This document shows positions 3,018 through 63,874 of a DNA stretch of 64,000 nucleotides, in pieces (position 1 is the first letter of the stretch; the number at the start of each line of letters is the position of its first letter). Both the position numbers and the translations under genes were made by a program. The notes under the pieces are model-generated. The model saw only the letters and a program-made list of their open reading frames with translations, made no database searches and had not been told where the DNA came from. The DNA is from a virus, in IMG/VR virus record IMGVR_UViG_3300035458_000037, positions 20,849 to 84,848 of that record; one strand, 5' to 3'.

Positions 3018-3444
3018 TCATATTGATATGTCACAATATCGATATGCTACAAAGCTATCCTCTGGCATCGATCTTCGTGCTAACCTGCTGGGGATGGAGT
3101 TGGAACCTCCAGGGGAACTACTGGTCTGGATCAATCAGCCTATCGTTGTGCCTACTGGTCTTACGTGTCAATTTCGGAACCGAGATATTGAAGCCCAGGT
3201 GCGCTCACGGGGAGGTCTTGCTGCCAAGCATGGCGTCTTCGTCCTGAACTCCCCCGGAACGATTGATGCGGATTATGAAGGAGAAATCAAAATAATACTT
3301 TGCAATACTATGAATGTTCCATTTAAGATTAAGCATGGAGATAGAATTGCTCAATTAGTAATTGCTCCGATTATAAGAATTCCTGAATATATGTCTGATC
3401 GTTATCGTGGAGAAGGACATCTTAGTTCCACAGGTATATCATAA
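2992..3444 (+). CDS. dut: trimeric dUTPase family protein
   Basis: Motifs SSGIDL, AQVRSRGGLA, NSPGTIDADYEGEI, GDRIAQLV, RGEGHLSSTG. Confidence 0.9.
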   Translation: MFKLIPLHDHIDMSQYRYATKLSSGIDLRANLLGMELEPPGELLVWINQPIVVPTGLTCQFRNRDIEAQVRSRGGLAAKHGVFVLNSPGTIDADYEGEIKIILCNTMNVPFKIKHGDRIAQLVIAPIIRIPEYMSDRYRGEGHLSSTGIS

Positions 3445-3722
3445 TGATTAAACCTCAATTTAGTGTTAGAATGTTTAAATCTTTGGGGATTGAGGAATGG
3501 CAAAAAGAAGATAGACGTGTAGCTGACAATCTTGGAACGAAAGGGAAGATTATGCGCAAGGACGTTTCACTTGAGGTGGTGGAAGCCCTTCTACATGATG
3601 CTCTTTTGTATCGAGATATATATGACGCAAACTTTCATTTAGAGGGAGCACCATGCGAATTGGTTTCTGTTATAAACAGCGAGCCGGTAAAGACACAGCA
3701 GCCGACTATCTTATCAATCTGA
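3444..3722 (+). CDS. hypothetical protein
   Basis: TAATG coupling to dut. Confidence 0.6.
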   Translation: MIKPQFSVRMFKSLGIEEWQKEDRRVADNLGTKGKIMRKDVSLEVVEALLHDALLYRDIYDANFHLEGAPCELVSVINSEPVKTQQPTILSI

Positions 3723-4225
3723 CAGGCGGCATTAAACTGAAGTTTGCAGATCCCTTGTATGAACTAGAATCACATTGCTATAAATTCATGGGACTTGGAA
3801 ATCCTGAATCTTACGATAAGAGTTCTCGTCGTATTTTCTTACAATTCATAGCTACCGATTGGGCACGAAGATTAGATCCAGATGTTTTTGTTAAAAAAAT
3901 GTATATTAGATTACAGCAAATGAATATGATGTGCCCTGTGTTATTCTCAAGTAAAGAATGTGAAACCAATTTATTTATTAGTGACGTAAGATTTCCAAAT
4001 GAATTTCATATGCTTAGGAACAATGGATTTATTCTTGTGAAAATCAATAGAGATGAAGCGTTGCGTGTAGCAGCAGGTGCAGTTAGTTTGGATCATAAGT
4101 CAGAAACTCTACTTGACGCATATCCAGATGAAGCATTTGATTATGTGATTGATAACAATGGAACCTTCAAGGATTTCTATTTTAAGATAGACGAAATGTT
4201 AAACTATATAGGAGTGCAAAAATAG
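3653..4225 (+). CDS. deoxynucleoside monophosphate kinase
   Basis: N-terminal P-loop-like AGKDTAA, FADPL, ISDVRFPNE, HKSE, IDNNGT, as in phage dNMP kinases. Confidence 0.9.
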   Translation: MRIGFCYKQRAGKDTAADYLINLTGGIKLKFADPLYELESHCYKFMGLGNPESYDKSSRRIFLQFIATDWARRLDPDVFVKKMYIRLQQMNMMCPVLFSSKECETNLFISDVRFPNEFHMLRNNGFILVKINRDEALRVAAGAVSLDHKSETLLDAYPDEAFDYVIDNNGTFKDFYFKIDEMLNYIGVQK

Positions 4226-4250
4226 CCAATTTCCTGTTATAAGATATTTG
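4214..4250 (+). promoter_or_regulatory. early-type sigma70-like promoter (copy 1 of 5)
   Basis: GTGCAA-18 nt-TATAAG with extended TG; matches nnGCAA-N15-TGTTATAA(T/G)ATAT. Confidence 0.65.
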
Positions 4251-4318
4251 ATAGCAATAATGCTATTATCTCCCCTGCGATCAGGGGCCTTTGTGCCTAA
4301 GGGCACGCGGAGGATGTA

Positions 4319-5278
4319 ATGCGCCAGGAAATCGAATTCAGCTTGTATGATATGATCGACATCTCTAACAGGATGGGCAAGGATTGGGATATCAGCGAAA
4401 GGCTGATCAAGCCAGTATTGGAATTGTGTGACAAGGTTAGTAACAAATATATTACCTTGCGGTCAGGTCATAGTATCTATCGTTTCACCGCAGTTGGTGG
4501 ATGTTTGGTTTTGGACATCAATCAGGATGAACTAGTTAGAATGAAATTGCAGTCAAAAGATGCGCAGGAAAAAATTGACAAACTCACCAAAGAAAAAGGT
4601 GAAGAAATGAAGAAGTGTAAGAAAGAAGACATCGATAAAGTAACAAATAAGTTTGATGAAAAAATCAAGAAGGTGATGGAAGAAAGCGGAAAGGATGGAG
4701 AAGAATATAACAAAGCTGTGGAAGCGTTTGACGAAGAAATATTCAAGATTCCACAGATTGCTGCGAAGTTGATAGAAGTGTTTGGGCCAGTTCTTCATAG
4801 TTTCCTGGTGCCCAGCCCCATGATTCCTTCTCAGCCGGAGGCACCCAAAGCTGAAGCGCCTAAGCCTGAGGCTAAGCCCGAAGCACCCAAGGCTGAAACA
4901 GAGCATATGGTTCCGCCATATGAAGATCGAAAATCTTTTGCCGAAACCGCAAGGGATAACATGAATGAAGTTCTCAAGAAATTTGATACCAACAAACAAA
5001 AAGATTTTGGAATTGTTCTAGCGTTGAGAATGGTAACTGTGGAAAATTTAATGAAAACCAATAACTCCACATTTTGGCAAATCATTCAATGGAATGCCGA
5101 TGTTGCAAAAGGAATTATCAAAGAAGAAGAGATCTATGCCAAAAGCTGCGCCATTGCAACTCACTTTCTGAGAGCCTCTGATGCTCATTTATCCGAAGAA
5201 TTAGTTGGCCAAATCTCCAAGGATTTTGGAAACAGGATGGTGGAAATCCATTACGAAGAACAAAGGAAAGCAGCATAA
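4319..5278 (+). CDS. hypothetical protein with coiled coil and PEAPKAE repeats
   Basis: 319-aa ORF with GGAGG SD, its own promoter and terminator. Confidence 0.8.
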   Translation: MRQEIEFSLYDMIDISNRMGKDWDISERLIKPVLELCDKVSNKYITLRSGHSIYRFTAVGGCLVLDINQDELVRMKLQSKDAQEKIDKLTKEKGEEMKKCKKEDIDKVTNKFDEKIKKVMEESGKDGEEYNKAVEAFDEEIFKIPQIAAKLIEVFGPVLHSFLVPSPMIPSQPEAPKAEAPKPEAKPEAPKAETEHMVPPYEDRKSFAETARDNMNEVLKKFDTNKQKDFGIVLALRMVTVENLMKTNNSTFWQIIQWNADVAKGIIKEEEIYAKSCAIATHFLRASDAHLSEELVGQISKDFGNRMVEIHYEEQRKAA

Positions 5279-5280
5279 TA

Positions 5281-5320
5281 AAAGCAATCCCCCATTCACA
5301 TGGATGGGGGATTGTTTTTT
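5281..5320. terminator. bidirectional intrinsic terminator
   Basis: AAAGCAATCCCCCAT...ATGGGGGATTGTTTTT between convergent genes. Confidence 0.85.
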
Positions 5321-6143
5321 ACCTATGTATTATTCTTCTTATCAAATCTCTCATTGAAGCTAGTTTTTCAAACCAGGGTTGATGTTCAATCTTTCCCCAT
5401 CCAACAGTGATTTCACGAGCTTTCAAGGCAGCGATTGGATCATTGAGATTTAGATCAGGATGATACTTCTTCATAGCATCTCGGTATATTTTCTTAGCCT
5501 CTGCTTTGGTAGTTATTTGCGTATGGGATTTATTACCCCATTTCATAAAGAAAGATTCATGCTCATTATCTATGCTACCTGGCATAGGAGGTGGAGTATA
5601 TTTCTTTCCGAAGTTTTGCCAATTTTCTTCTTTAAAACTATTCTTATTATATTCTTGCCAATTCTCTTTTGCTTTCTGATCGTGATAATTATCCCAAAAT
5701 GTCTTTTGTTTTCTTTCAAATTCTTGTCTTGATCTACTAGCATAATTTTCTTCTCTGGCTCTTGCACGTATTCTTTCAAGATTTCGTTCAGCGGTACTCA
5801 ATTCATGTTCAGCCTTGTGCATGGCCATACCAAAGCCTACGCCACCCGCCAGGGCTCCCAGGCCAGCACCGATCCAGGCACCCGTATTCTCTTCCTTGGT
5901 ATCGAATGCGCTACCAAGTAGGGCACCACCCAGGCCACCCACCACCGCCCCGCCCAGTGCGGCAAGCGGCACCGCAGATGCCATCTTGACTATCCCGCCA
6001 GATCGCTTAATCCCAGTAGCGATAGCTGTGCCCTCGCCACCGCCATTGCGCAGGATGGCATTAGCAATTTCAATGGCCTTCTTCCTGCGCCTTATAGATA
6101 AATTTTTCATTGAATTCGGGTAGTCGGTTTCTGTCCAGGGCAT
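5319..6143 (-). CDS. YdaT/ChaB-like N-terminus + glycine-zipper helices + C-terminal J (DnaJ) domain
   Basis: MPW..DYP.SMKNL...KAIEIANA N-terminus; GGxxGGxxG helices; AKKIYRDAMKKYHPD J-domain signature. Confidence 0.75.
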   Translation of the reverse strand: MPWTETDYPNSMKNLSIRRRKKAIEIANAILRNGGGEGTAIATGIKRSGGIVKMASAVPLAALGGAVVGGLGGALLGSAFDTKEENTGAWIGAGLGALAGGVGFGMAMHKAEHELSTAERNLERIRARAREENYASRSRQEFERKQKTFWDNYHDQKAKENWQEYNKNSFKEENWQNFGKKYTPPPMPGSIDNEHESFFMKWGNKSHTQITTKAEAKKIYRDAMKKYHPDLNLNDPIAALKAREITVGWGKIEHQPWFEKLASMRDLIRRIIHR

Positions 6144-6145
6144 CT

Positions 6146-6430
6146 TTATTCCTCTTTTTTTTTAAAAGCGCCATGAAGGATTAGTGGTTCAACCGTGCTG
6201 AGGATACCACCATACATCGCGCCTTCTTTCAGTCCCTTGACAACCTTCTGCCGGAAGACAGGCCCCGCAGCATGCCGCGCCTTCCATGCCGCCAGACCAG
6301 CATCAGCCGCAGCGATACCCCCGGTCAGAGCTATTCCGCTGGCAAGATAAGGGTGCCGTTGCGCCCACCCACCTAGGCCGCCTTGTTGGTTGTTGTCTCT
6401 ACTTTGGGCAGCCAGCTTTACAAGGCTCAT
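6146..6430 (-). CDS. small tagged (MSLVKLAA) glycine-rich hydrophobic protein, putative virion internal protein
   Basis: AGGGG SD before ATG at 6430; N-terminal tag; two hydrophobic G/A-rich helices. Confidence 0.7.
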   Translation of the reverse strand: MSLVKLAAQSRDNNQQGGLGGWAQRHPYLASGIALTGGIAAADAGLAAWKARHAAGPVFRQKVVKGLKEGAMYGGILSTVEPLILHGAFKKKEE

Positions 6431-6575
6431 GTTTCCCCTTCGCTTTTTTGAGTTCTTCCACATCATCGGCAAGCAACTCTTTAACTTCCCCCTGGATGTG
6501 TTTGAAAGTTTTATCGTCCTTAGTCATATGTTTGCTATCAACGATCATTTTCTTTGCCAACTTGATAATTCCCAT
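6399..6575 (-). CDS. 58-aa tagged protein (MGIIKLAK...), not in ORF track
   Basis: Translated by hand: MGIIKLAKKMIVDSKHMTKDDKTFKHIQGEVKELLADDVEELKKAKGKHEPCKAGCPK; AGGAG SD; fills the operon gap. Confidence 0.7.
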   Translation of the reverse strand: MGIIKLAKKMIVDSKHMTKDDKTFKHIQGEVKELLADDVEELKKAKGKHEPCKAGCPK

Positions 6576-11037: not shown

Positions 11038-14000
11038 TTGTATTGTGATATCGGTTTTCATACAGATCTCACTCTTGGTAGATCAGCGCTTAGATTTAAG
11101 TATCTGAAAAATTTAAAATTTAATAATCCAATAGCTATTTGTGATAACGGAAATATGTCTCAATTAGTAAAGAGTTTAAGTTTAAATAAAATGAATATTC
11201 CAGCCGTTGAATTATTTGTTACCACTTCATATAAAGCGAAATATAGAACGAATGATGCATTAAGATTTTTTGCATTTGATGATGAGGGGTATCAATCATT
11301 ATGTAAAATGATTTATATAGCAAATGTTAATAAATATTATGTGCCACGTATTGAAATACAGGATCTAATATTCAATGGAAACATTGTCTGCGTAGCAGAC
11401 AATGATTTTCTGTTTATAGAAGAATTGCCTATTGATAAAACATTTATTGCCATCAATGAAAGTAGTAACCCAGGTGACGAAATCTATCTTAAATATAATC
11501 CAATATTTTATTATAGCTCATACGCTTTGCATAAAAGAAGTCTAGATGCCATATCACTTTTATCAGAACGTCAATTCACTCATGACGGAAATGTATGGTA
11601 TTATGACGATTCGCATTATGCGATTGCATCTTTGATACCTGATGCAATTGCAAATTACAGCAATCTGCTGAAGAAGCATTCCTCTCCAATCATAAAAATG
11701 GAAGATAGATATCCAGTCTTTTGTCCAGAAGCCGATCAGCTTTTTGATGCATTAGTTGAATCAGGTTTTGATAGGAAATGTCCACAAACACCGCAGTATA
11801 GAAATAGACTTGAGTTTGAGAAGTCTGTAATCAAAAAGATGAAGTATGAAAACTATTTTTTGGTTAACTGGGACTTCATTAATTGGGCTCGCAACAATGA
11901 CATACCCATTGGACCAGGTAGAGGATCTGCGGCAGGATCATTAATTGCATATTGTCTCGATATCACCAAATTAGATCCAGTATCTAATGGATTGTATTTC
12001 GAAAGATTTTTGAATCCTGAGCGAATATCTCCTCCAGATATTGATACTGATGTTGACTCAGAAGACAGATCTAAGGTTGTTACATATATAAAAAATAAAT
12101 ATGGAAGTGACCATGTTTCGAAGATCGTCACCTTCACAGAGTTGAAGTCCAAGTCGGCCCTGAAGGACGCAGCGCGGCTGTATGCCATTGCGCCGGATGA
12201 GATCAATGACATCACCGCTCTCTTTCCGCCCGCTGTCTTCGGCGTTACACCACCCCTGGAGGAGGCCTATGAGGTTGCCGCTATCAAAACCTGGGCGGAT
12301 GCACATCCAGGGGTCTGGAAGGACGCCAGGGAGCTGGAAGGGTTCGTCCGGGGAACTGGCGTGCATGCCGCTGGTGTGGTGATCGCTCCCAAGAAGCTGA
12401 ATGAAATAGTTGGAGTGAACACAATAGATGGTGAAGAAATATGTCAGTTGGATAAGGATGATGCAGAAAAGTTTGGACTTCTCAAATTAGATTTGCTTGG
12501 ATTAGAAACACTTCATTTGATTAAATCGACTCTTACGAAGATTGGTAAATCGTATTATTCAATGGAGGATATATCGCTTAACGACGCAAGCGTCATTAAA
12601 CGGTTCGCGTCTGGTGACACTCATGGCATATTCCAATTTGAATCCGACAATATGCGCAAGCTGCTTGTGAGAGTCAATCCCACATCATTTGCCGATATTG
12701 CTGCTGTAACCGCTCTTTATCGTCCCGGCCCACTTACATCAGGGCTTACAGAAGATTACATTAAGAATAAAAATTCTGAGAATCCCGAATATTCATTTCC
12801 TGAATTCAAAGATTTATTATCTGAGACTTATGGAATCTTTGTTTATCAAGAACAAGTTATGCTTGTGTCTCAGGTAATATCAGGATTTAGTTTGTCTCGT
12901 GCTGATACTTTGCGAAAAGCTATAGGTAAAAAGAATAAAGAATTGATGATAGTTCTTGAACGCGAGTTTATTGATGGAGCTGTTAATAAAGGATACAACG
13001 AAGTTGATGTTACAAAACTATGGAATCAAATATTGAAGTTTGCAGATTATTGTTTCAACAAATCACATTCATATGCATACACAATGTTATCGTATTGGTC
13101 AATGTATCTGAAAGTATATCATACCAATGAATTCATAGCTGCGAAACTTTCTTGTGACATGAAAGATACTTCTGAATTGAGAAAAGATTTTTATGAATTT
13201 AAAAAAGATACAGAATTCTTTGATCCATGTATTAATAAATCAGATGAATCATTCGTTCTCTCTGAAAGTACGGGCGTCATGATAGGTTTAGGAGCTATCA
13301 AAGGATTAGGTAATCTAGGAAAGGAGATTATCAAATATAGGCCATATGATAAAATTGCACAATTCTTTGATAAGGTTAAGATAGATAAGTCTCAATTGAT
13401 ATCTTTGATTTATGCTGGTGCTTTTGATTGTTTTGAGAAAGATAAAAGTGTCTTACTAGGTAATGTAGAAAGATTCTTAAAGTTTAATAAGGATAAATCC
13501 CATTCGACAATCATTGAGCTTTTTGATCCGAGCGATGTCTTCGACCTGGACCTGTCGAAGTGCCAAATCCCGCCCGACGCAAGCACCATGGAAAGGGCCT
13601 GCTATGGCTTCAATCTGCGCCATGGGTTCATCAATGAGCGGAGGTGGGTGGTTGAGCACCTGAAGGATAATCACGTCGTAGGGACTATTACAGACGTGAA
13701 GCGCACAAAAACCAAAAAGAGTAAGGAGGATATGGCTATAGTATCAATCTATACTCATAATAAAACAATGAAGGTTTTGTTATTTGGTCAAGAATATGAA
13801 AAGTATAATAATCTGCTGGTGAAAGAAACAACATGTGGATTTACTGGGGAGCTAAAAGAAGGAGAAGAACCAACGATATTTGTTACAAAGATGTGTGACG
13901 AATGTAGTATTAAAATTACTCGTGCAGATGTAACTATAAAGTTATCCGCAAGCAATGAGAGATTAAAAGAGAGATTTGATTTATTGATGTCTACACACGA

Positions 14001-14195: not shown

Positions 14196-15107
14196 ATGAC
14201 TGTATATAACATTACGGAAGTTCCGCAATCTACAACAGCCCCAGCTATTCGAAATGATATTCCTGTATTTATTGGAAAGTCTTCGATACTTAATCATAAA
14301 TCAATAAGTTTTATTAATGGCGATTATACAAAAGCAACATTATCACTTGATGTTTCTGTGCAACAATTTAATGAAAACTTTGTAATTTCATATTGGCGTG
14401 ATTTAGTAACTCCATTTAATGCAACTACATTAGTAAATGGACAAACATTAATCAGTGTCAATGCAACGGTTGTTGCAAATTTGGATGCGACAAAGTTGAT
14501 ATTTGCTCTGATTGATAATAGTGGAACATTACTGTTCACATCTCCCGTAAGTAATATAGTTTTTTCTCCAGATAATACAAAAGTATTAAGCGTAATAATC
14601 AAAGATCCACTTGTAGTTAGCACACAAACAAAAGGCTCTATCTTAGGAATAGCGCAGGAAAGTATACCTTATACTTACAGCATGATTACTAAAGTTTATA
14701 CTTTGAATTATACCCCGTTATCTTCTGTGACTGGACTATCTGTAGTGACTTCGAAATCATATGTTGAATATGAGACTCTCAATACAAGTGATTATTCTGT
14801 AATCACAGATGAATCTGTGATTACAGAGTCCAACCAAGATATTTTACGTGGTCTCAATGCATCAGAGCAAGCTGTCGTCATTCCAGCTTACTCTGATGCA
14901 GATATTTCAAATGTAATTAATATTTTAAATATCCTAACTCCAGGATATTATATTACCCCGATAGGAATGTCGGATACTTTTAATTTAGCTATTGCAAACT
15001 ATGTAAAAAGTATTACTAAAAGTAAACCTTATTCAGCTGTATTACCGCCTGCTGCAATAGTAACTCAAAATACATTAGTAAGTGGTGCTACATATGTCAA
15101 ATCTTAA
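14196..15107 (+). CDS. virion protein, probable paralog of the tail-sheath N-terminal half
   Basis: N-terminal IPVFIG vs LPCLVG, and C-terminal TLVSGATYVKS vs TLTSATYTKS of 30045-31016. Confidence 0.6.
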   Translation: MTVYNITEVPQSTTAPAIRNDIPVFIGKSSILNHKSISFINGDYTKATLSLDVSVQQFNENFVISYWRDLVTPFNATTLVNGQTLISVNATVVANLDATKLIFALIDNSGTLLFTSPVSNIVFSPDNTKVLSVIIKDPLVVSTQTKGSILGIAQESIPYTYSMITKVYTLNYTPLSSVTGLSVVTSKSYVEYETLNTSDYSVITDESVITESNQDILRGLNASEQAVVIPAYSDADISNVINILNILTPGYYITPIGMSDTFNLAIANYVKSITKSKPYSAVLPPAAIVTQNTLVSGATYVKS

Positions 15108-45430: not shown

Positions 45431-45438
45431 CGTAAAGA

Positions 45439-46176: not shown

Positions 46177-46223
46177 ATAATGTCTCCTTTTGGAAATTGT
46201 GTTGCGCAACAGTTGATTATGAC

Positions 46224-52460: not shown

Positions 52461-55400
52461 TTGTCAGAGAATCGGCAGTCACCGGAGTTCACGAATTTTC
52501 TTGAAAAAATAAAAGGTCAAATAGATATTGCTGAACTTTACACTGATCTTACTAAAGAAGCTTTCACTAATGTTGATGGTAGGAATAGAGCGCGAATAGC
52601 TTGGAGAAATGATAATAATCCAAGTCTATGCCTTTCTTCCGGAAAAAACTTACTAACAGACTTTACTGATCAGGATGAAAAGTCAGAAAAAGTTGGTAAA
52701 ACATATAATGTATTTGATATACTTATAAAGTGCGGTGGTGCTATTAATTTCTGGCATGCGGTTCAGATAGCATCGAAAAAGGTTGAACTACAAACAGAAT
52801 TTAAATCATTTCTAAAGTTAAAAAAAGAAGAATCTGGTTATGAAGGTTCGCCAGTTCTAGGCGAAAAGATTATCGAAGTTTGGAATTTGTGTAAACAGAA
52901 TCTCTTAGATAAAGTAAGAGATGCGGGCAAAAGAACGATTGATCTTAAGCAATTTTTTGAAAAGAGAAACATTCCTTGGGACGAACAATTTATTGATGTT
53001 GTGAACATTGGTTTTCTTCCAACTTATGATGAAATATTTAATATATTAAAAGATAATGATATCTTACCAAAAGGTAAAGGTAAGGAATTGAATATCTTTA
53101 AAAAAGAATTTGGAGAGAAATCAATAGTATTCCCTTTGTATAATTTAAATGGTGCTCTTTGTGGATTGAGATTTCGTAACATAGAGCACAAGTCTTTTCT
53201 AGAGTGGATTCCAATGGACCACTCTTGTTTCTTTAATGCCAATAGATTTCAAAAGTTTCTAAAAAGCAAAAAACGTTTATTGCTGGTTGAAGGAGAGATG
53301 AATGTAATCGCTTATGCAATTGCGATATATAAGGAGCATAGTAATGCAGTAGCGGTGGATAATTATCTTGCACAGATATATTCAACAGGATCAAAAAGTA
53401 ATTCTGCATTACCATTTCGCAATCGTATAAGAGAAGTGTTGTATATTCAAGATAATGATATTGGCGACATAGATAAATATACATTCCCGAAAGAACATCC
53501 TATCTTAAGAACATGCTTGAAAATTGACAAAGACATAGATGCTGATGATGTAAGAATGGTTAACTGGGATGAAGGTTTTCCAGTTAAAGGTGATCTAGAA
53601 GATTTTTTAAAAATAAATAATTATGATAGACACAAAATTGATGATATGAATAAAATGACTGTTGTTGATTATGCATTGAATTATATCAATTATTATTGTA
53701 ACACATTTGATGACATAGACATTCAGAATGAATTAAGAGTAAAGTATATAGCAGAAATGACATCGTTGTTCAGCACATATGCAAGACGTGAAATGTTCAA
53801 GAAAAAAGCTCAGGAACGTTTCAATATTACGAACAAGCAATTGGAATTCGTGGGAAGTTCAATAGCAAAAGTTGGAGAATATTCAACCAATGATATGGGT
53901 CATATTATTAAACAGTGCGAGGATAAGAATGGAGAACCGTTTATAAAGACATGCACAAATTTCTACACACGAATACGAACATCATCTACACGTTATCCAT
54001 TATTTTCCAAACCAAGGAAAGAATTCAAGATAGAAGTTGTAATTGACGGTATAGTAAGAGGAGTTTTTGATATATCTTCAGATGATTCAATAAATCCAAA
54101 TCAATTTAAAATAGGCATAAGAAATGCAGTAACTCATACTGATTTGAAATATGAAGATGAGTCATTACGAGATAAGAAGTTTCAGGAGGTGATCATGGCA
54201 TTGAATGATAGTATTCCAGCGAAAGAGGAGAGACATATATTTATGTCATTAGGAAGACCCGAACCAGATCCAGAAGAGAATATTTGTGCAGCGATTCTTA
54301 GGACAGAAATATATTGTGTGATGCCACAATATTCAGTTGTCAATGGATCGATAGAAGATAATACTGAAACTAACATTCATTTCGAACTTCCATTAGCAAA
54401 AGATAAAATGATGTTCGAGTTCTCCAAGTTGAATGAATCAGAATTCAAAAAGGCGGGCGATCTCTTCTGGAATGATTTGAGACACATCCATGACCAGAAT
54501 GTGATGGACACCCTCATCGGACAGGTCTTCGACTCCTGTACGCGAGAATTGCAGGCCTACGGGCTAGTTCAGGCTGACCATGGGTTCCCGATTTACCTGG
54601 CTGGGGAGAGCGGTAGTTACAAGACCACGGCGGCACTCGGGGCGATGTCATTGGTGGGGAAGTTCAAGACTCAGAACGACGTTTTGAATTGGCACGCTAC
54701 AGGGCTGGCAATTGAAAATCAGTTGTTGCCGGTGGGAACGCTCACGCACGTCATTGATGATATGAAGATTGAAGAAATCCAAAGTAAAGATTTCATTAGT
54801 TTCTTTCATTCCATTTATGGCGGAAGCACAAAATCAAGAATGAATAGCACGGGTATGGAAATGAAAGGAGGCAAGCAACTCAGATGTTCTGCGATTATTA
54901 CGGCTGAAACTGGGGATGTAAATATTCCAGAATCTATTGCTGCGAGAATGTTAATGCTGAGAATCAAAAAATGTAACCCAGATATTGGACTTCAAAGAAA
55001 AGAACATTTGCAGAAACTGTATGATGAGATGCATAACGATAAAACTTATAACATTGAGTTGATGTGTGGATTCATGCCGCGAATAGTAGAATGGGCACAG
55101 CGACGCGGCTCTGGTCCCTACAGAGAATGTGTAGTGAAATGGAAACGCTACTTCGAAAAAATAGTGGCAGATCGCAAGAATAATATTGAGCGTCCAACAG
55201 ATATGGCTACTAGAGTTGTTGCAGCTTTTGATACAATTTGTGAATTTATGAAGGCAAACAAACTTATAGAATCATCTATCATCGATAAACGTTTCCAAGA
55301 ATTTATTGATTTCTGGAGCCATGAGATTAACAAGCAGGTAAATCGTATTGAAGGTCAATCATCGGTTTTCAAAACCATAGGCTTATTATGGCAAGCGTTG

Positions 55401-55775
55401 AAAAGTAATGAGCTTCAAGTAAGAGAATTTAAAAATGGTAGGTGGGCAGAACAAGTAAGTAGATATAATCAACAGCACTATTTGTATGATATAACATATC
55501 CAAATGACAAAGGGAGAAAGATTTTAATTGTTGGATCAAATGGTTTGATCAAAGTTCTAAATAGTTTAATTGCTAAAAACTCTCCTCCACTTCTATTGGG
55601 TAAATTTATTGGAGATCTAAAAGAGCATGGAGTAATAGAAGAAGAATTGTATCCACTTCCAACTTCAACAGGAGATATCAAATGGGGTGAAGGGACTGTA
55701 GGTTATCAGGCAATCGATTATGACAAGATGATCAAACTCGTGGAAAGGATTCACATCAATGATCAAAATAGCTGA
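52461..55775 (+). CDS. primase-helicase fusion (DnaG-like TOPRIM + C-terminal P-loop helicase)
   Basis: IVFPL...G.RFR, LLLVEGEMN, QDND; GESGSYKTT, VIDD, IITAE. Confidence 0.85.
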   Translation: MSENRQSPEFTNFLEKIKGQIDIAELYTDLTKEAFTNVDGRNRARIAWRNDNNPSLCLSSGKNLLTDFTDQDEKSEKVGKTYNVFDILIKCGGAINFWHAVQIASKKVELQTEFKSFLKLKKEESGYEGSPVLGEKIIEVWNLCKQNLLDKVRDAGKRTIDLKQFFEKRNIPWDEQFIDVVNIGFLPTYDEIFNILKDNDILPKGKGKELNIFKKEFGEKSIVFPLYNLNGALCGLRFRNIEHKSFLEWIPMDHSCFFNANRFQKFLKSKKRLLLVEGEMNVIAYAIAIYKEHSNAVAVDNYLAQIYSTGSKSNSALPFRNRIREVLYIQDNDIGDIDKYTFPKEHPILRTCLKIDKDIDADDVRMVNWDEGFPVKGDLEDFLKINNYDRHKIDDMNKMTVVDYALNYINYYCNTFDDIDIQNELRVKYIAEMTSLFSTYARREMFKKKAQERFNITNKQLEFVGSSIAKVGEYSTNDMGHIIKQCEDKNGEPFIKTCTNFYTRIRTSSTRYPLFSKPRKEFKIEVVIDGIVRGVFDISSDDSINPNQFKIGIRNAVTHTDLKYEDESLRDKKFQEVIMALNDSIPAKEERHIFMSLGRPEPDPEENICAAILRTEIYCVMPQYSVVNGSIEDNTETNIHFELPLAKDKMMFEFSKLNESEFKKAGDLFWNDLRHIHDQNVMDTLIGQVFDSCTRELQAYGLVQADHGFPIYLAGESGSYKTTAALGAMSLVGKFKTQNDVLNWHATGLAIENQLLPVGTLTHVIDDMKIEEIQSKDFISFFHSIYGGSTKSRMNSTGMEMKGGKQLRCSAIITAETGDVNIPESIAARMLMLRIKKCNPDIGLQRKEHLQKLYDEMHNDKTYNIELMCGFMPRIVEWAQRRGSGPYRECVVKWKRYFEKIVADRKNNIERPTDMATRVVAAFDTICEFMKANKLIESSIIDKRFQEFIDFWSHEINKQVNRIEGQSSVFKTIGLLWQALKSNELQVREFKNGRWAEQVSRYNQQHYLYDITYPNDKGRKILIVGSNGLIKVLNSLIAKNSPPLLLGKFIGDLKEHGVIEEELYPLPTSTGDIKWGEGTVGYQAIDYDKMIKLVERIHINDQNS
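54490..54750. other. GC-rich island inside the primase-helicase gene
   Basis: 35/60 G+C in line 54541 vs 12/60 in line 53641. Confidence 0.8.
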
Positions 55776-57411
55776 TATCACAAACTTCTGTGGAATCGAA
55801 TATCTACAGCTTGAATTCAAAAAATTCAATGTATTCGATGGTCTAAGTATGCAAGGGAAATCAACAATCTTGCAGGCAATTAAATGGGCGATTTTCGGTA
55901 GCAATGATGATTCGTTAGTTCGCACAGGCGCGGATGAATGTGAGGTCATTGTCCATACTGATGACGGCACAAAAATTGAACGAAGACTTGCAATTGGTGG
56001 AACATCCAAACTATATGTATATGATGAGAAGGGACACAGTATTCCGAAGCCTCAGGAACATTTGAAACAAATATTTAATCTAATGGCATTTGATCCAACT
56101 AGTATGTTGAGCATGGATGATAAAGCGATTGGGGTGCTTGTATCTAAAGCGATCAGCCAACGCCTAGAACTCGGAGAAGAAGAGCTGAAGAAATATTATA
56201 TTTCTCACTTGAAACTCGGAGATGATCCAGTTTTAATGATTAAGAGTTATTATGATACTTTATTCAAGGAAAGAACTGAAGTTAATAAAGGCGTAAAGGA
56301 AGGAGAGGTAAAGACGAGGAGTATCAAACCGGTAGATGAGACAGTTCTAGCGGAGATTAAGACTCAACTGGCTACAGCCGAGTCTGAATTGCAAACTATC
56401 AATCTTCATAATGCCAAGGTTATGGCAAATCAGAAACATAAAGAAATTAAAATGAAGAATGATGAGGAGGTGAAAAGGTTGGAGCATCAGCTCTCACTTA
56501 TTCCAGCTTACGAAAGTAAGCTGGAAGAAGTGAGTATGAAGCTTAAGGAACTTACTGAAGAATTGAGCAAAGAAGAACAAGTCTTTAATGATTCCAAAAC
56601 AAACAAAAGAAACATCGAACAAGTATTAAATAAACTAGAGGGTGATAATATCTCTTGTCCGCTTGACGCCAGTATAAAATGCACAACCAATATCAAAGCT
56701 CACGCCGAGAAGCTCAAAGAGTTTGTTACTAACCGCGAAAGTGAAATTGAATTTTCATTCAAGAAGATTCAGTCTTTAAAAGAAAAGATTGAAGAACTCA
56801 AGAAGATTCTGGAAACAGATGCACAAAGAAAGAGTTTGTCTGTAAGCCACGAACGAGCATTGTCTATCTCAAAAGAATTAAAGTTATTCGAAGGAGAGAT
56901 TATTGATACTAAAGATAAACAAGAATTCGTAAATAAGAGAAAAGAAGAAATCGGTGAAATGGAGGCGACTGTAAGATATAATAAAATGATGGAAAATGAA
57001 GTTTCGACTTTAAAGAAGAAGGTTGATAGGCAAGCTGAATTGAATAAAATCTTAGAAGCGCTTAATGAACTTATCAATATTGAGATTCCAAGCAAATTGA
57101 AATTGAATGTAACTGGTATGACTCTTGAGAATGGCCAGCTCCGATTCCGGGGGCTCCCGCTCTCCAGGCAAGGTGACAGCTACAAGTTGCGACTCTGCAC
57201 AGCGCTGCTGAAAGACCTATATCCTGCGGCAAACATCTTTATGCTGGATCGAAGTGAATGTATTGATTCTGCTGAGTTTAAGAAGTATGCGGAGAAGTGT
57301 GCATCCGGGCCAGGGGATACCCAGTACTTCGCGGCCTATGTAGGGTCGATCCGAAGCGAACATCCAGGGGTCAAGGTAACGACGATGGAAGGATTTAAGG
57401 TGAAAGTATGA
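55759..57411 (+). CDS. SbcC/Rad50-like ATPase
   Basis: G..MQGKSTILQAI, coiled coils around a central CP motif, LDRSECID Walker B/D-loop. Confidence 0.8.
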   Translation: MIKIADITNFCGIEYLQLEFKKFNVFDGLSMQGKSTILQAIKWAIFGSNDDSLVRTGADECEVIVHTDDGTKIERRLAIGGTSKLYVYDEKGHSIPKPQEHLKQIFNLMAFDPTSMLSMDDKAIGVLVSKAISQRLELGEEELKKYYISHLKLGDDPVLMIKSYYDTLFKERTEVNKGVKEGEVKTRSIKPVDETVLAEIKTQLATAESELQTINLHNAKVMANQKHKEIKMKNDEEVKRLEHQLSLIPAYESKLEEVSMKLKELTEELSKEEQVFNDSKTNKRNIEQVLNKLEGDNISCPLDASIKCTTNIKAHAEKLKEFVTNRESEIEFSFKKIQSLKEKIEELKKILETDAQRKSLSVSHERALSISKELKLFEGEIIDTKDKQEFVNKRKEEIGEMEATVRYNKMMENEVSTLKKKVDRQAELNKILEALNELINIEIPSKLKLNVTGMTLENGQLRFRGLPLSRQGDSYKLRLCTALLKDLYPAANIFMLDRSECIDSAEFKKYAEKCASGPGDTQYFAAYVGSIRSEHPGVKVTTMEGFKVKV

Positions 57412-59103: not shown

Positions 59104-59262
59104 ATGGATATGGAAAAAACCGGCAATTCTGAATATGTCGTCTATCGGGTGCCTTCGCCTGATGGCATCCTCATGCGGCACCCTGGAGGAATCATTACCG
59201 CCTATGACGGTCGCTTCGGGGAATTACCTGAAGGTCAGGAGCAAATGGTGATCCCGGTATGA
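59104..59262 (+). CDS. 52-aa hypothetical protein, not in ORF track
   Basis: AGGAG SD; MDMEKTGNSEYVVYRV...; ATGA overlap with the recD-like gene. Confidence 0.6.
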   Translation: MDMEKTGNSEYVVYRVPSPDGILMRHPGGIITAYDGRFGELPEGQEQMVIPV

Positions 59263-60899
59263 CCAGGCGTCCGCTCCGGCAGAATGTTCCAGTGGCTTCT
59301 TCGGAAGAGAAGCTACTGGAAATAGGTGTTCCAAGACATGTCATCAAAGAATATGGAGAATATGAAAAACAAAATTTACTTCATCGTCTCAGAATAGATC
59401 CTTGGAGTTGTTACGATAAAGATAAAGGTCTTACGATAAAAATTTGTGATACCATTAGTAATAATCTCAATATTCACAATAATGTTATGAGATGTAAAGG
59501 TTATCTTCGATATGTTTTGGAATGTATCGCAGAAAACGGACATTGTTACGGGAGATCGAAACAAGTCCTAGATAAGCTTTCCGATGAAGCATATTTCAGT
59601 AATGACGTTGTGCGTCAAGCTACAGATGAGTTGCTGGATGATAAGTTGATGTTTGTTAGTCCAAAGAATAACTATTTTCTATATAAATATTTTTATGCAG
59701 AGAAAAACTTTGCAAATATGCTCATCAAGAAATGGAGAAGTAACGGAAATGAAACAGGGTTTATTTGCGAATACACAGAAAAGCTTGAGATGCTTAATGA
59801 AACGCAACGTGCAGTGGTAGATGCTATAGAAAACAACTATCTCATCATACTTACTGGTTTGCCGGGAACGGGTAAGACAACTACGATTAGCGCAATTGTA
59901 GAATGTTATGGAGAAGATAATGTAGTATTATTAGCTCCAACAGGTAAGGCTGCGTCTAGAATTTCAGAACTTTGTGGAATGAAAGCGTCAACTTTACACT
60001 CTTACTTCTTTAATCCAAATGAAAAGATAAATTACATAAAAGAAAAGATAGTGATTATAGACGAATTATCTATGCTCGATGTTGAAATAGCAGGATGGAT
60101 CGCAGAAGGTATAGGAGAAGACTGCGTTCTGATTTTGGTAGGAGATCCAAATCAATTACCCAGCGTTGGCCCAGGTCAAGTGTTACAAGATATACTTGAT
60201 TCAAACGCCAGAGAGAGGTATCATCTGACTCGTATCATGCGACAGCAACCCGGCTCCATCATCCAATCGGCTCATGCAATCCACGCGGGAAAGGATCTCG
60301 TTGCGGGTTCGGATAAGGAAGTCTCAATCTACTGTCCTGATAAATGGGATTTGAATGAGATAACTTATCATATTTGTGAAGATCCAGAATGGAGGGACGC
60401 ACAATTCCTATCTGTTTTAAAGGACATGGGCTCACGCATTATTAATCCGGCAGCACAAAGGATATTCAGAACTATTCGTCCTGGGAATATATTTGCAATG
60501 AAAGATAAAGTGATACATATAAAAAATAATAAAGATTTGGGTGTATATAACGGAGAAATGGGAGAAGTGGGATATATGAATGATCAATATCTCGAAGTTG
60601 AATATAGAGATAAGATTATTAAATACCCCAAGTTTTTATGGTGGCAATTAGAATTGGCATATTGTGTTACGATCCATAAAGCACAAGGAAGTGAATTTGA
60701 TAAAGTAGTATTGTTCATTAGCCCAAGTAGAATTACAACTAGGAATATAATTTATACTGGCATCACGAGAGCTAAGAGTAAAGTGTTGGTAATAGCTCCG
60801 TCAATGCGAGTAATAAGTGATGCCATTTCGAATATAGGATCAAAGCGTCAAACATCAATGTCATATTTAATTGCAAAGGGGGCAACTTGTGAAGATTGA
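59259..60899 (+). CDS. RecD2-like SF1B helicase
   Basis: GLPGTGKTT, APTGKAA, IIDELSM, GDPNQLPSVGPG, AYCVTIHKAQGSE, YTGITRAK. Confidence 0.93.
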   Translation: MTRRPLRQNVPVASSEEKLLEIGVPRHVIKEYGEYEKQNLLHRLRIDPWSCYDKDKGLTIKICDTISNNLNIHNNVMRCKGYLRYVLECIAENGHCYGRSKQVLDKLSDEAYFSNDVVRQATDELLDDKLMFVSPKNNYFLYKYFYAEKNFANMLIKKWRSNGNETGFICEYTEKLEMLNETQRAVVDAIENNYLIILTGLPGTGKTTTISAIVECYGEDNVVLLAPTGKAASRISELCGMKASTLHSYFFNPNEKINYIKEKIVIIDELSMLDVEIAGWIAEGIGEDCVLILVGDPNQLPSVGPGQVLQDILDSNARERYHLTRIMRQQPGSIIQSAHAIHAGKDLVAGSDKEVSIYCPDKWDLNEITYHICEDPEWRDAQFLSVLKDMGSRIINPAAQRIFRTIRPGNIFAMKDKVIHIKNNKDLGVYNGEMGEVGYMNDQYLEVEYRDKIIKYPKFLWWQLELAYCVTIHKAQGSEFDKVVLFISPSRITTRNIIYTGITRAKSKVLVIAPSMRVISDAISNIGSKRQTSMSYLIAKGATCED

Positions 60900-61008: not shown

Positions 61009-61880
61009 CTTTAGAAATGTCTCGTTATGCGGTGCAGGCAAGACTTGCAATTGGCGAAAAACACAAAGAGAAAGGGTATCCAGTAAAATTAGACCATTTC
61101 ATTATTACGATGCCATTTGACAAAGCTAATGGATTTGCTCCGAGACATCCAGCTCTTTCTCAATATCTGAAAGAGATATATAAAACTGATAGACCAAAAA
61201 TTATAGATATCGTTTTGATTGACGATCATCCAGACGAAGTATTTTATACCAATTATATGAACTATCGAGGTTCCACGTGTTGCTGCAAGGGAGATGGGAC
61301 AACAGCGATTCGTGTTGGATCTGATGGTAACAAATTTGAAACTGTTTGTGATTATGATAAATGTGAATTCAAATTTAATACTACCAACAAAGGAGTGATT
61401 AATACTTGTAAGCCTACAGGTATATTATCTTTTGTATTGGTAGATGCTCCGCTATCTGGTGGTATTATTAAATTCTCGACCCATTCAAGAATGACAATTG
61501 AAGCGCTGAATGGATTTTTCAGAGAGATTTATCATTTCAGGAAAACTTTGAAACTTATGAAAGTAAGATTACGACTTAAAACTGTAAGTGTTAATGTTAA
61601 TGGTAAACCTACGAATGTTTATATCGTTGAAGGTGAAGTGCCATTCAGTTTAAAAGAAATTATGATGGGTGCCGGAACTGCCGTTGGAACTATTGATGAC
61701 GTGAGGCCGAAAAACTTCTTGGACATGAAGCCAGTTCCACCAAATAAAGAAAAGATGAAAGCATTGGATGAGATGGCGCAAAAGGAAGGATATGACGGAT
61801 CTGACGCGCCAGAAACTGTGCTAACAGCAGAAGTGCTGGCAGCAGATAAATCAGGTAGTGATGACGATATAAACTTCTAA
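61005..61880 (+). CDS. Gp3-like (recombination directionality factor-like) protein, possible ssDNA annealase
   Basis: RL.IG.K...YP.KLDHF, C.GDG..A, CKP.G.L, F.T.S; acidic DDDINF tail. Confidence 0.7.
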   Translation: MTLEMSRYAVQARLAIGEKHKEKGYPVKLDHFIITMPFDKANGFAPRHPALSQYLKEIYKTDRPKIIDIVLIDDHPDEVFYTNYMNYRGSTCCCKGDGTTAIRVGSDGNKFETVCDYDKCEFKFNTTNKGVINTCKPTGILSFVLVDAPLSGGIIKFSTHSRMTIEALNGFFREIYHFRKTLKLMKVRLRLKTVSVNVNGKPTNVYIVEGEVPFSLKEIMMGAGTAVGTIDDVRPKNFLDMKPVPPNKEKMKALDEMAQKEGYDGSDAPETVLTAEVLAADKSGSDDDINF

Positions 61881-61908
61881 AAACATAACCTACAGAACTG
61901 GGGCTGCC

Positions 61909-62667
61909 ATGGTTATCATTGGAGTTAACGACATCCATCTGCGATGTTGTGGAAAGTATTTCCAAGAATGTAGAATAATCTTTCGGTGTAATGCCCCTAC
62001 TGAATCTGTTGGTAAGGTTCGCTTGTCGAACCTTATCAATATCAGAGTGGCTAAATGTAAATGTGAAACAATATGTTATTGCGACGGATTGATTAGACCC
62101 GTCAAGTCAAAAGTAATCCCTCCAAAAGTTGTTGTAGTAAAGGAGGTTAAAAAGATAGAACCAGAAGATACCGATTTAGAATTTATTGAATTAGAAGATG
62201 TTGAATTAGAAGATCTATTCGATGGTCTAGATTATGTTGAAATCGAAGATGAAAGAGATAGGATAGAAGTAACTTATCAGAAAGAAAAACTTATTTGGAT
62301 AAAAACATTTAATAAAAATGAAAGGTTAGCAGAAGCTATTGATCTTGAATATGATTGCGATGAAGTTTATTTAAGCGAAAGATTATCTCAAGAATATCCT
62401 AAATTCTTTCTAGTAGATCATACAACAATTTTCTATAAAGCGAGCTGTCCATCCAAAGAAGCAATGAGTTATGAAAGAAGTATCATGGCAAAGATAGGTA
62501 ATAATAAAGCTAAATATGGGACATATACTAGAATCGCATTATTGGAAACACATAATAAAATACATCGAAATTATGAAGAGATAGTTGTCATTTTCAACTA
62601 TTTAAGTAAATTCGATATCTTCGCAACACTTCCAGTTTTACGGGAGCAATCTAATGTCAGTGAATAG
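61909..62667 (+). CDS. hypothetical protein, Cys-rich N-terminus and acidic linker
   Basis: 252-aa ORF; start uncertain. Confidence 0.6.
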   Translation: MVIIGVNDIHLRCCGKYFQECRIIFRCNAPTESVGKVRLSNLINIRVAKCKCETICYCDGLIRPVKSKVIPPKVVVVKEVKKIEPEDTDLEFIELEDVELEDLFDGLDYVEIEDERDRIEVTYQKEKLIWIKTFNKNERLAEAIDLEYDCDEVYLSERLSQEYPKFFLVDHTTIFYKASCPSKEAMSYERSIMAKIGNNKAKYGTYTRIALLETHNKIHRNYEEIVVIFNYLSKFDIFATLPVLREQSNVSE

Positions 62668-63874
62668 TAATAGTGAAGTAAAGAGCATGAGATTTTCCGC
62701 AATTAATGCAAGACAACAATGTCCACTTTGGGCATGGCTAGTTTATCGCCAGAAGATTTCTGGATATAAGAATCCTTATGCAAAACTTGGAATAGCGATT
62801 CATGATTTGTTGGCTGAGTATGCAGAACACTGTGTCAACAATAGTTTATCTACAGATCATGATTTTCTAGATAAAAAGAAATATAATCACTTTGTTAACA
62901 TTGAGCAAGATCAATTTGATGATGCTAATCAAATGGTAGAGTCAATCAAGAATCATTATAATTGGGAATGTCATTTTAATCATAGCGTTTTGGAAATAGA
63001 AAAAAGATATATGCTAGATAAGAATTTCAATCCAACTGAAAATGAAGATGAAGCTTATATTTCGGGTGGTATTGATTTTCTGTATATTGATGCCGATGAA
63101 GCAGTGGTAATGGATTATAAAACCGTAAGATCTATCTATACAAAGAGTTTCATGAAGGACTCTTTGCAAAGAAAGATTTATTCATTATTGGCTCTCAAAC
63201 ATTATTCTCAGATTGAACAGGTATCCTTCGTATTTGATTTCGTAAGGTATGGATATGAGTCTACCCCCATAACCATGGGGCGAGAGGAGATTGAGGGCGT
63301 AGAGACACTGTTGCGGGCCGAGATTGAGGCGACCCAGGAGGTTCTTGCGCAGCAAGAATCTCCTGTTCCTTCTCCCGGAGCACACTGCATCCTCTGCGAG
63401 GGCCGAGCCTCTTGCCCAGCTTATCGCCAGGCCTTCGATCTCCGGCAACAGATCACTACCCCAGATGAAGCCGCCAAGCTCTATCGGCAGTGGAGGCTCG
63501 GCAAAGTGCGTATGGACGCCAGCGAGGAGCTTTTGAAGTTCTGGATTAACACCCACGGCCCCATTCAAGTTAACGGTGAAGAGTATGGATTACATCCGGA
63601 GAATACTACAAAGTATAATGACACAAAGAAGATGATTGATATATTGACTACTGCTGGTGTTCCAATGGGAGCAATCCATGATGCACTATCTATCACCAGC
63701 ACTAATGTAAAAAACATTATCAAAAGATTTAAACTTAGTAAGGAAGTTCAAAAATCTATTGAGGCAATAGCAATAGTTACTACATCTACAAAATATAAAG
63801 CTAAAAAGATTAAAGGAGTAGAAGATGAAGATAATTTCGATGAAGATGAAGAGCTAGAAACAAGGTATCTCTGA
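62654..63874 (+). CDS. PD-(D/E)XK (AddB/Cas4-like) exonuclease
   Basis: QCP, G..IH, EKRY, GGIDF, DYKT, Q..IY, CILC..R..CP cysteine cluster. Confidence 0.85.
   Translation: MSVNSNSEVKSMRFSAINARQQCPLWAWLVYRQKISGYKNPYAKLGIAIHDLLAEYAEHCVNNSLSTDHDFLDKKKYNHFVNIEQDQFDDANQMVESIKNHYNWECHFNHSVLEIEKRYMLDKNFNPTENEDEAYISGGIDFLYIDADEAVVMDYKTVRSIYTKSFMKDSLQRKIYSLLALKHYSQIEQVSFVFDFVRYGYESTPITMGREEIEGVETLLRAEIEATQEVLAQQESPVPSPGAHCILCEGRASCPAYRQAFDLRQQITTPDEAAKLYRQWRLGKVRMDASEELLKFWINTHGPIQVNGEEYGLHPENTTKYNDTKKMIDILTTAGVPMGAIHDALSITSTNVKNIIKRFKLSKEVQKSIEAIAIVTTSTKYKAKKIKGVEDEDNFDEDEELETRYL
63260..63560. other. GC-rich island inside the nuclease gene
   Basis: 39/60 G+C in line 63361 vs 18/60 in line 62821. 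Confidence 0.8.

Follow-up and report, generated by a model that had tools for sequence, protein, structure and literature searches.

Position-conserved GC-rich islands laid over the genes of an AT-rich tailed soil phage, and a strict octamer present in part of them

Horizontally transferred islands enter a genome as compositionally foreign DNA and then undergo amelioration, and HIP1 and the uptake sequences are hyper-abundant short words of chromosomes. The present analysis concerns the virus record IMGVR_UViG_3300035458_000037 of IMG/VR (84,848 bp, 37.7% G+C (GC), no N; referred to as G000) and especially its right 64 kb (positions 20,849 to 84,848), referred to as the window, to which coordinates given without further mention refer. 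This DNA, whose gene content is that of a large tailed phage, contains abrupt GC-rich patches, here called GC islands, and an over-represented octamer, CCCCTGGA, counted together with its reverse complement TCCAGGGG. The islands resemble transferred islands by their sharp local departure from the composition of the genome. They differ from them in that they are located inside genes, in frame, are orthologous to AT-rich sequence in relatives, and appear to be actively maintained instead of decaying towards the genome mean. The octamer recalls HIP1 and the uptake sequences as a short G/C-rich word occurring in unrelated genes and in any reading frame, but it is a single non-palindromic 8-mer found about once per 3-4 kb and accompanied by GC islands that are hundreds of bases long.

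Two other described systems are closer. GC-biased gene conversion acts at recombination hotspots in mammals and yeast, and the hypothesis has been extended to bacteria (PMC4450053, PMC12290510). Such hotspots display a local bias towards G/C at synonymous, non-synonymous and non-coding sites and a shift of amino acids to those with GC-rich codons, and they can die, after which the islands erode; these features are shared by the phage islands. The differences are that the present case is a phage, that the patches measure 100-900 bp and are inside genes, that no link to recombination is shown, and that the island positions are stable over ~30% divergence, in contrast to the fast-moving PRDM9 hotspots. 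A literature search, limited in scope, found no phage case of biased gene conversion. The second system is represented by the Chi-rich lambdoid phages LLS and MD8, in which a strict octamer is present far above expectation (PMC12315714, PMC3784561). In the first of these papers, LLS has 23 Chi sites (one per 1.86 kb), and the Chi sites of such phages are strongly one-stranded (20/23 and 32/32) and clustered near one end (PMC12315714). The likeness resides in the over-representation of a strict octamer with approximately one site per 2-4 kb. However, the octamers of G000 and of its distant relative G001 are strand-mixed and evenly spread, the word is not abundant in the 406 FCB-group genomes searched, and the phage has its own recombination genes.

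Islands were delimited with a sliding GC content of at least 0.52 over 100 bp. In the whole genome, 49 islands represent 13,792 bp, with 52.4% GC inside and 34.9% outside. The window contains 40 of them, which cover 10,972 bp (17% of the window) and have a median length of 224 bp (range 100-881). An earlier note, made from the sequence alone, had listed 20 clear islands, which are all recovered at their places with maxima of 0.53-0.70. Among the seven weaker bumps that it mentioned, those at 18.3, 36.5, 42.7 and 48.95 kb pass the threshold at the places given and the three others do not: an island is found at 9.05-9.16 kb instead of 9.4 kb, and the bumps at 0.45 and 33.6 kb reach only 0.445 and 0.41 (200-bp bins). 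The flanks, announced at 20-30% GC, have an actual mean of 35%, and 19% of the windows outside islands are at or below 30% GC.

The shift noticed at third codon positions is borne out (GC3 of 0.54 inside and 0.27 outside) and extends to the other positions, GC1/GC2/GC3 being 0.590/0.455/0.542 inside islands and 0.437/0.339/0.273 outside. Every codon family shifts in the islands, where C and G at the third position both double, and the 494 non-coding bases included in islands display 0.52 GC versus 0.34 outside. Since all codon positions, non-coding bases and all codon families are concerned, the signal acts on the DNA, independently of what is encoded. The data therefore support a compositional signal at the DNA level laid over the coding sequence, in agreement with the earlier note. 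Windows of at least 0.52 GC represent 7.8% of all windows. Synonymous shuffles made genome-wide (n=100) give 1.9% of such windows (maximum 2.3%) and shuffles made within genes (n=100) give 4.6% (maximum 5.0%), so that the observed share is reached in none of the 200 amino-acid-preserving shuffles and the islands go beyond amino-acid composition and gene-level codon usage, which together account for about half of it at most. Fourteen of the 49 islands extend beyond a single gene. The island centres are distributed among gene quintiles as 7, 7, 10, 10 and 14, which is not significant (hand calculation), and the head module is richer in GC as a whole.

Fragments of close relatives, obtained from other samples, cover ~17 kb of the window. 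These are L104 (9.6 kb, 42.5% GC, 74% identity over aligned windows), L185 (4.9 kb, 37.5% GC, 87% identity) and L198 (4.9 kb, 43% GC, 69% identity). The GC contents of aligned 90-bp windows are correlated with those of G000 with r=0.73 for L104 (n=61), 0.92 for L185 (n=33) and 0.87 for L198 (n=47), and the high-GC windows of G000 are also high in the relative in 11/13, 7/9 and 8/9 cases, respectively. The nucleotide identity inside islands and elsewhere is 0.76 and 0.74 with L104, 0.86 and 0.88 with L185, and 0.68 and 0.69 with L198. In these alignments, the islands hold their position and their composition as the sequence drifts.

One island of L104, located in the POT-like gene, corresponds to AT-rich sequence in G000. 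The codon alignment is collinear and orthologous there, and the differences consist of silent T/A-to-C/G changes and of replacements of Ile, Lys, Asn and Thr by Val, Ala, Gly and Pro in L104. In the windows that are GC-rich only in L104 (395 sites), differences amount to 0.372 versus a background of ~0.23, and the excess is entirely in the class where L104 has G/C and G000 has A/T (0.235 versus ~0.10). These windows were chosen by their GC difference, which inflates that class, and the informative part is that the reverse class, the G/C-to-G/C class and the A/T-to-A/T class are all at background. This pattern is that of a directional change in place and not of a foreign patch.

More distant relatives were found via DnaE, namely G001 (112.7 kb, 31.8% GC), G002 (33 kb, 32.6% GC) and G003 (157.4 kb, 31.7% GC), the last of which is complete and has terminal repeats. 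Their proteins are ~55% identical to those of G000, and only 0.8-1.1% of the windows of G001 and G003 are at or above 0.52 GC. In the codon alignments (13,811 codons for G003 and 7,804 for G001), GC3 at the codons aligned to G000 islands is 0.22 in G003 and 0.16 in G001, versus 0.54 in G000; at the aligned codons elsewhere it is 0.17 and 0.14. In G000 itself, GC3 at conserved and changed residues is 0.551 and 0.540 inside islands, and 0.279 and 0.276 outside. Among the differing residues of the islands, Gly, Ala, Arg and Pro represent 0.30 in G000 versus 0.18, and the group Phe, Tyr, Met, Ile, Asn and Lys (FYMINK) 0.21 versus 0.34. In the second dnaE island (13491-13714), the FYMINK share is 0.27 versus 0.35-0.49 in 11 DnaE relatives. 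Protein identity is slightly higher in islands than elsewhere (0.55 versus 0.50 and 0.53 versus 0.47). Protein conservation was nevertheless rejected as the cause, with a within-gene correlation between GC3 and identity of r=0.09 and 0.03, and in DnaE G000 departs from conserved residues at 3/51 island columns versus 12/260 others. Because G003 and G001 are AT-rich at the orthologous codons and the correlations with conservation are weak, the islands are a derived feature of the branch of G000 that protein conservation does not explain.

Substitutions were polarised by parsimony, which is imperfect with an AT-rich outgroup, W designating A or T and S designating G or C. With G003 as outgroup (399 conserved synonymous sites of five head genes), W>S changes on the L104 branch affect 48/99 sites inside islands versus 24/90 outside (p=0.003), and S>W changes on the G000 branch affect 14/55 sites inside versus 13/27 outside (p=0.049). 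With L198 as outgroup, the islands were defined on L198 to avoid circularity (~3 kb). The equilibrium GC (GC*) of the G000 branch is then 0.58 inside islands versus 0.36 outside, and that of the L185 branch is 0.26 inside (11 W>S, 39 S>W) versus 0.39 outside (Fisher p<0.001). On the G000 branch, S>W changes are found at 16/535 sites in islands versus 41/666 outside, that is, at half the rate. These small counts suggest that G000 and the L104/L198 lineage maintain the islands and that L185 is losing them.

The octamer CCCCTGGA is the most over-represented strand-collapsed octamer of G000 (20 copies versus 0.84 expected) and of G001 (34 copies versus 0.42 expected), and it is the second of G002 (7 copies). 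Within G000, 18 of the 20 copies are in islands, versus 0.62 in Markov simulations (maximum 3, n=200), and the GC content around the octamer peaks at 0.52 and goes down to ~0.36 by 450 bp. The copies are spread over the three codon phases and over both strands with respect to the genes, and no flanking consensus is found across 61 sites, so that the octamer is a DNA word and not a peptide. The strands are mixed, with 11 plus and 9 minus copies in G000 and 14 plus and 20 minus copies in G001. The spacing is more even than chance in G001 (coefficient of variation (CV) 0.63, p=0.002; largest gap 7.9 kb, p=0.005). The octamer clusters of G000 (n=15) have a CV of 0.49 (p=0.003), pairs closer than 400 bp being merged by a rule chosen after looking. 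The octamer at 24787 (+) is conserved in G000, L185 and L198 despite ~30% divergence, with an inverted partner at 24716 that L185 and L198 keep unchanged and that differs by one base in G000; other sites turn over between genomes.

In G002 (L088, L089), the word ACCCTGGA with 8 copies is as common as CCCCTGGA (7 copies), and the selected core there may be the 7-mer CCCTGGA preceded by A or C. Among cellular genomes, five hand-picked FCB-group genomes contain 13-42 copies each, and in 401 genomes of one Bacteroidota phylum sample the maximum is 279 copies in 2.4 Mb (one per 8.6 kb), versus 79 for control words. A literature search, limited in scope, found neither form of the octamer as a word, apart from one unrelated immunoglobulin paper. 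The octamer is a separate, lineage-wide DNA signal and probably a recognition site for a protein. It may help to seed the islands of this subclade, or it may arise, and be retained, most easily in DNA that is already GC-rich.

The features referred to in the text are the following (window coordinates; octamers with the position of their first base).
3040-3298: GC island in the 5' half of the dUTPase gene (2992-3444, +; Pfam dUTPase); GC 0.51, maximum 0.58; octamer 3108 (-).
4746-4956: GC island in a Pro/Glu/Ala/Lys repeat of the open reading frame (ORF) 4319-5278, overlooked previously; probably driven largely by amino-acid content, to judge from the PEAPK-type repeat of the translation.
5755-6462: GC island in two minus-strand genes for Gly/Ala-rich small proteins (5319-6143, 6146-6472); GC 0.55, maximum 0.67; the octamer 6489 (+) sits 27 bp past its edge.
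12095-12439: GC island inside dnaE (11038-14151, +), residues ~355-464; maximum 0.67; inverted octamer pair 12253 (+) and 12306 (-).
13491-13714: second GC island in dnaE, residues ~818-884; no octamer.
16187-16368: GC island near the 3' end of the SNF2-type helicase gene 15082-16539.
21295-21787: GC island inside ORF 20715-22694; octamer 21505 (+).
24333-24872: GC island at the 3' end of ORF 23932-24861; same place in L185 and L198.
26664-26987: GC island inside the conserved 608-aa gene of the structural module (25826-27652); no octamer; GC 0.54-0.59 in G000, 0.57 in L185 and 0.58-0.63 in L198.
27496-27719: GC island at the junction of the genes 25826-27652 and 27655-28104.
30745-31000: GC island at the 3' end of ORF 30045-31016; octamer 30886 (-).
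32021-32500: GC island in the 5' two-thirds of ORF 32011-32739; octamer 32117 (+).
38488-38716: GC island in ORF 38310-39170 (-); common to L104; overlooked previously.
39143-39500: GC island at the junction of ORFs 38310-39170 and 39257-39724; maximum 0.67.
39805-40515: broad GC-rich stretch in the head-module gene 39736-40665 (-); common to L104 and richer there (0.52-0.68).
40737-41179: GC island in ORF 40710-41156 (-); common to L104.
41431-41856: GC island in ORFs 41201-41563 and 41563-41970 (-); maximum 0.70; octamer 41733 (+).
45221-46101: longest GC island (881 bp), in ORFs 45071-45379 and 45439-46209 (-); no octamer.
46572-46808: GC island in ORF 46224-47552 (-); maximum 0.65; overlooked previously.
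51711-51872: GC island in the SNF2-type helicase gene 50555-52387; inverted octamer pair 51741 (-) and 51767 (+).
54452-54753: GC island in the primase-helicase-like gene 52461-55775; no octamer.
57092-57410: GC island at the 3' end of the SbcC-like ATPase gene 55759-57411; octamer 57363 (-).
59110-59349: GC island in ORF 59104-59262 and the start of the RecD2-like helicase gene 59259-60899.
60194-60349: small GC island inside the same RecD2-like helicase gene.
63232-63591: GC island in the PD-(D/E)XK nuclease gene 62654-63874; no octamer.
12253-12260 (+): example of the octamer CCCCTGGA; the plus-strand starts in the window (n=7) are 6489, 12253, 21505, 24787, 32117, 41733 and 51767.
12306-12313 (-): example of the octamer on the other strand; the minus-strand starts in the window (n=5) are 3108, 12306, 30886, 51741 and 57363.

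In the SNF2-type helicase gene 50555-52387, the inverted octamer pair can be lengthened at 51737-51778 into a perfect stem of 10 bp, TCCAGGGGTT ... AACCCCTGGA, that encloses a 14-nt loop. Some 20.8 kb to the left of the window, close to where the record starts, the first GC island contains a tandem 8-bp unit of the type GGCACCCA, with ~7 copies (G000:C1 ~74-130).

The explanation that we tentatively prefer is a position-specific fixation bias towards GC, acting on the DNA whatever is encoded and resembling biased gene conversion at stable hotspots. The islands would be places where the subclade of G000 is kept at an AT/GC equilibrium above that of its other DNA. The force would act on the DNA itself, at all codon positions, in all codon families and at intergenic bases; it would keep the composition and not the sequence, and it would be tied to position over ~30% nucleotide divergence. 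It could also be switched off in a lineage, in which the island would then decay. The most likely mechanism would be a GC-biased fixation associated with recombination or repair (biased gene conversion) at recurrent initiation zones. Biased gene conversion fits because of the shift at all sites, the drift of amino acids, the maintenance and the erosion, and the RecD2-like helicase, PD-(D/E)XK nuclease, SbcC-like ATPase and RecU-like resolvase of the phage make frequent exchange plausible.

Several observations weigh against this explanation. Amino-acid content and gene-level codon usage explain part of the islands, with as many as 59% of the windows that attain 0.52 GC, and the islands 4746-4956 and 5755-6462 may be largely protein-driven. 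The ratio of W>S to S>W changes on the G000 branch is alike inside (18:16) and outside (45:41) islands (Fisher p=1.0), the difference residing in the per-site S>W rates, and the counts are small (399 synonymous sites; ~3 kb). A faint within-gene GC3 correlation with G003 (r=0.17, p=0.001) indicates that part of the pattern is older than the subclade. Biased gene conversion, selection for GC-rich DNA and a local mutation bias are not told apart by the sequence comparisons. As for the octamer, its link with the islands is weak: 34 of the 49 islands (7.9 kb) do not contain it, no second shared word stands out in these octamer-free islands, and one-mismatch variants are not enriched in G000 (15 versus 15.3 expected), so that decayed sites do not explain them. 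In G001 the octamer flanks have 0.311 GC, equal to the genome mean (0.318), so that GC is not raised by the octamer alone.

If a biased fixation of this kind is true, G000 would provide, in a virus of bacteria, a clear case of position-specific, composition-only evolution inside genes, where silent and amino-acid changes at fixed places are steered by something besides protein function or codon adaptation. GC-driven substitutions could then mimic adaptive change and affect how phage sequences are read for selection. The case would also bear on the prediction of hosts from composition and on whether biased gene conversion occurs outside cellular meiosis.

The main rival is that selection keeps the GC-rich segments since composition itself is functional, as duplex-stability clamps in a very AT-rich chromosome, by the exclusion or positioning of an AT-binding host protein, or as loading zones for a phage DNA-binding protein. 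It is the nearest to the silencer-barrier and loading-site options of the earlier note and it fits almost as well, although we consider it unlikely. Position and composition are kept in close relatives with a sequence diverging as fast as elsewhere, S>W changes become fixed half as often per site in the islands of G000 as outside them, and a strict octamer, selected in its own right, is present in a third of the islands; these points would all agree with selection. However, this octamer, a candidate protein site, is present in just 10 of the 40 islands of the window, the octamer-free islands have no shared word, repeat or RNA structure, a binding protein is not known, and no H-NS-like factor was found, no search having been aimed at one. 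Moreover, the most AT-rich relatives, G001 and G003 (31-32% GC), do without islands, and L185 is losing its own.

A further reading, rather improbable in our opinion, makes the octamer the site of a DNA-processing protein of the lineage (nickase, recombination initiator or loader), needed every few kb and seeding GC-biased repair. In one subclade, the octamers together with other initiation zones would seed a few hundred bp of such repair, and the coding sequence would be rewritten towards G/C at fixed places. If this is true, viruses would have their own equivalent of the recombination hotspots that are directed by a motif and show biased gene conversion, complete with the death of hotspots and the erosion of islands. 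As a strict and evenly spaced word, the octamer also offers a separate lead to a DNA-recognising system in large soil phages.

The size of the islands (median 224 bp, up to 881 bp) matches that of repair patches, and GC has its maximum at the octamer and falls away to either side. These features, as well as the change of all codon positions and non-coding bases, could suggest a local mutation bias, in which short patches would be copied again and again by a polymerase whose errors lean towards GC, perhaps where nicks, primer sites or breaks occur close to the octamer or at it; the islands would then be mutational in origin and not due to biased fixation. Such a bias appears doubtful, as the total divergence in shared islands is no higher than outside, G000 shows a lower S>W rate and not a higher W>S rate, the octamer is without GC effect in G001, and most islands have no octamer.

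An ordinary cause, combining Gly/Ala/Pro/Arg-rich segments with a stronger codon bias in highly expressed (head) genes, is hardly more convincing as a full explanation. When synonymous codons are shuffled, 1.9-4.6% of windows still have 0.52 GC or more, and the richest 100-bp windows attain 0.75-0.78 (0.69-0.73 on average), versus 0.72 observed; the head module is richer overall, some islands are on low-complexity peptides, and GC3 is weakly correlated with that of the AT-rich relatives. None of these shuffles reaches the observed share, however, and the non-coding bases, all codon families and both C and G shift. The shift is regional and not tied to conserved residues, its correlation with conservation is near zero, and islands are also present inside replication genes such as dnaE.

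An import of the islands as recombination tracts from a GC-rich relative or host, an option of the earlier note that would accord with phage mosaicism (the identity between G000 and L185 is 0.83, then 0.89 in the next block, with an indel of ~1.3 kb between them) and with the sharp look of the island edges, is very improbable: 50,697 phage records contain no nucleotide match to 20 kb of the sequence (near mode) or to the 8-kb head module (distant mode), metagenome contigs yielded no close relative, no relative in a DnaE alignment of 24 sequences gains identity in the two dnaE islands, where the nearest one (P0001, 65% identity) remains nearest or tied, the lineage-specific island differs only by extra AT-to-GC changes, and the identity of G000 to L198 or L104 is equal inside and outside islands.

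Other candidates were rejected. Mobile GC-rich repeats inserted in frame are represented by the Rickettsia palindromic elements and the yeast mitochondrial GC clusters. Among the 49 islands, no inter-island blastn hit is found (E<=1e-3), and the residues encoded by islands align with those of orthologues. RNA structure was discarded as the mean folding z-score (dinucleotide shuffles) is +0.12 for the 49 islands versus -0.55 for 49 control windows. Concerning overprinted antisense genes, the depletion of CTA and TCA (ratios 0.42 and 0.65) is no stronger than that of other A-ending codons (0.50). An antisense ORF of 262 codons is present at 39853-40641 (+), in the same phase through the head-module gene 39736-40665, which has just 2 TTA, CTA or TCA in 310 codons (3 in L104 and 8 in the AT-rich G003); this ORF looks like a by-product of strong codon bias. 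Finally, assembly chimeras were set aside with the run X1 of a soil metagenome (0.06 of words shared), which contains short, low-depth contigs of a strain ~84-97% alike. Three of these contigs (~94% identity) bridge the left island edges at ~12.1, 21.3 and 27.5 kb, and the islands are common to three independent assemblies of close relatives.

The earlier note had also described a regular series of islands with a period of ~3 kb. The list on which it was based had missed ~20 islands, for example at 4.75-4.95, 38.5-38.7, 39.8-40.5, 40.7-41.2 and 46.6-46.8 kb, which break the apparent regularity. The series of the replication arm at 51.8, 54.6, 57.25, 60.3 and 63.4 kb is real and is interrupted by the island at 59.2 kb. 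The periodicity itself fails in the autocorrelation, fast Fourier transform (FFT) and Rayleigh tests. Against 1,000 permutations of gene blocks, the autocorrelation bump of 0.11 at 2.8 kb has p=0.124 across lags of 1.5-6 kb (p=0.024 within the 2.5-3.3 kb band, picked after looking), and the 3,026-bp peak of the FFT yields p=0.45 (0.13 inside the same band). The Rayleigh test on island centres at three thresholds gives p=0.20, 0.047 (best period 1,050 bp) and 0.40, with nothing particular near 3 kb, and the CV of island spacing (0.71-0.73) is not significantly different from the null (0.81-0.85). The even spread of the octamer-bearing islands is probably what was perceived as a periodicity.

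A simple ORF set of G000 comprises 118 genes covering ~94% of the genome, and the window contains no tRNA gene. The phage encodes a terminase large subunit, a protease-like head protein, DnaE, two SNF2-type helicases and a primase-helicase-like protein, and the SbcC-like ATPase, RecD2-like helicase, PD-(D/E)XK nuclease and RecU-like resolvase are accompanied by SSB. There are also dUTPase, dNMP kinase, NDK, a radical-SAM protein, and AmpG-like and POT-like transporters. The scans with family libraries took in ~60 of the 118 ORFs (40 proteins versus Pfam and 30 versus PHROGs, with 10 in both), and no HNH, GIY-YIG or methyltransferase family was detected among the proteins scanned. The nucleotide-metabolism set (window 2992-4225; L102 16995-17429) is composed of a dUTPase/dCTP-deaminase-like protein, dNMP kinase and NDK, and could point to a modified base. 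The dNMP kinase of G000 has a match in G001 and none in G003.

L185 carries ~1.3 kb of extra sequence directly upstream of the 608-aa structural gene (window 25689-25814; L185 1345-2759), and this point, across which the identity to G000 jumps, has the look of a mosaic junction. Beside junctions of G000, the genomes of G003 and G001 carry three insertions that encode, from reading of the translations, a protein family with a MSLIKLA tag and a fibre-like protein. The MSLIKLA... gene (275-306 aa) directly follows the 608-aa structural gene in G003 and G001 (L094 2482-3309; L087 5988-6908), and G000 has no gene at this position (window 27652-27655). The top cellular matches of the AmpG-like protein are Bacteroidota (~38%), and a related family occurs in Bacteroidota, Ignavibacteriota and others. 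Three contigs, the longest of 108,200 bp, encode a protein that is 100% identical to the AmpG-like protein (35411-36691) over 95% of its length, and the 84.8-kb record may thus be incomplete. The AmpG-like and POT-like genes have no match in G001 or G003, and their order is reversed in L104 (window 35411-38273; L104 2972-5843).

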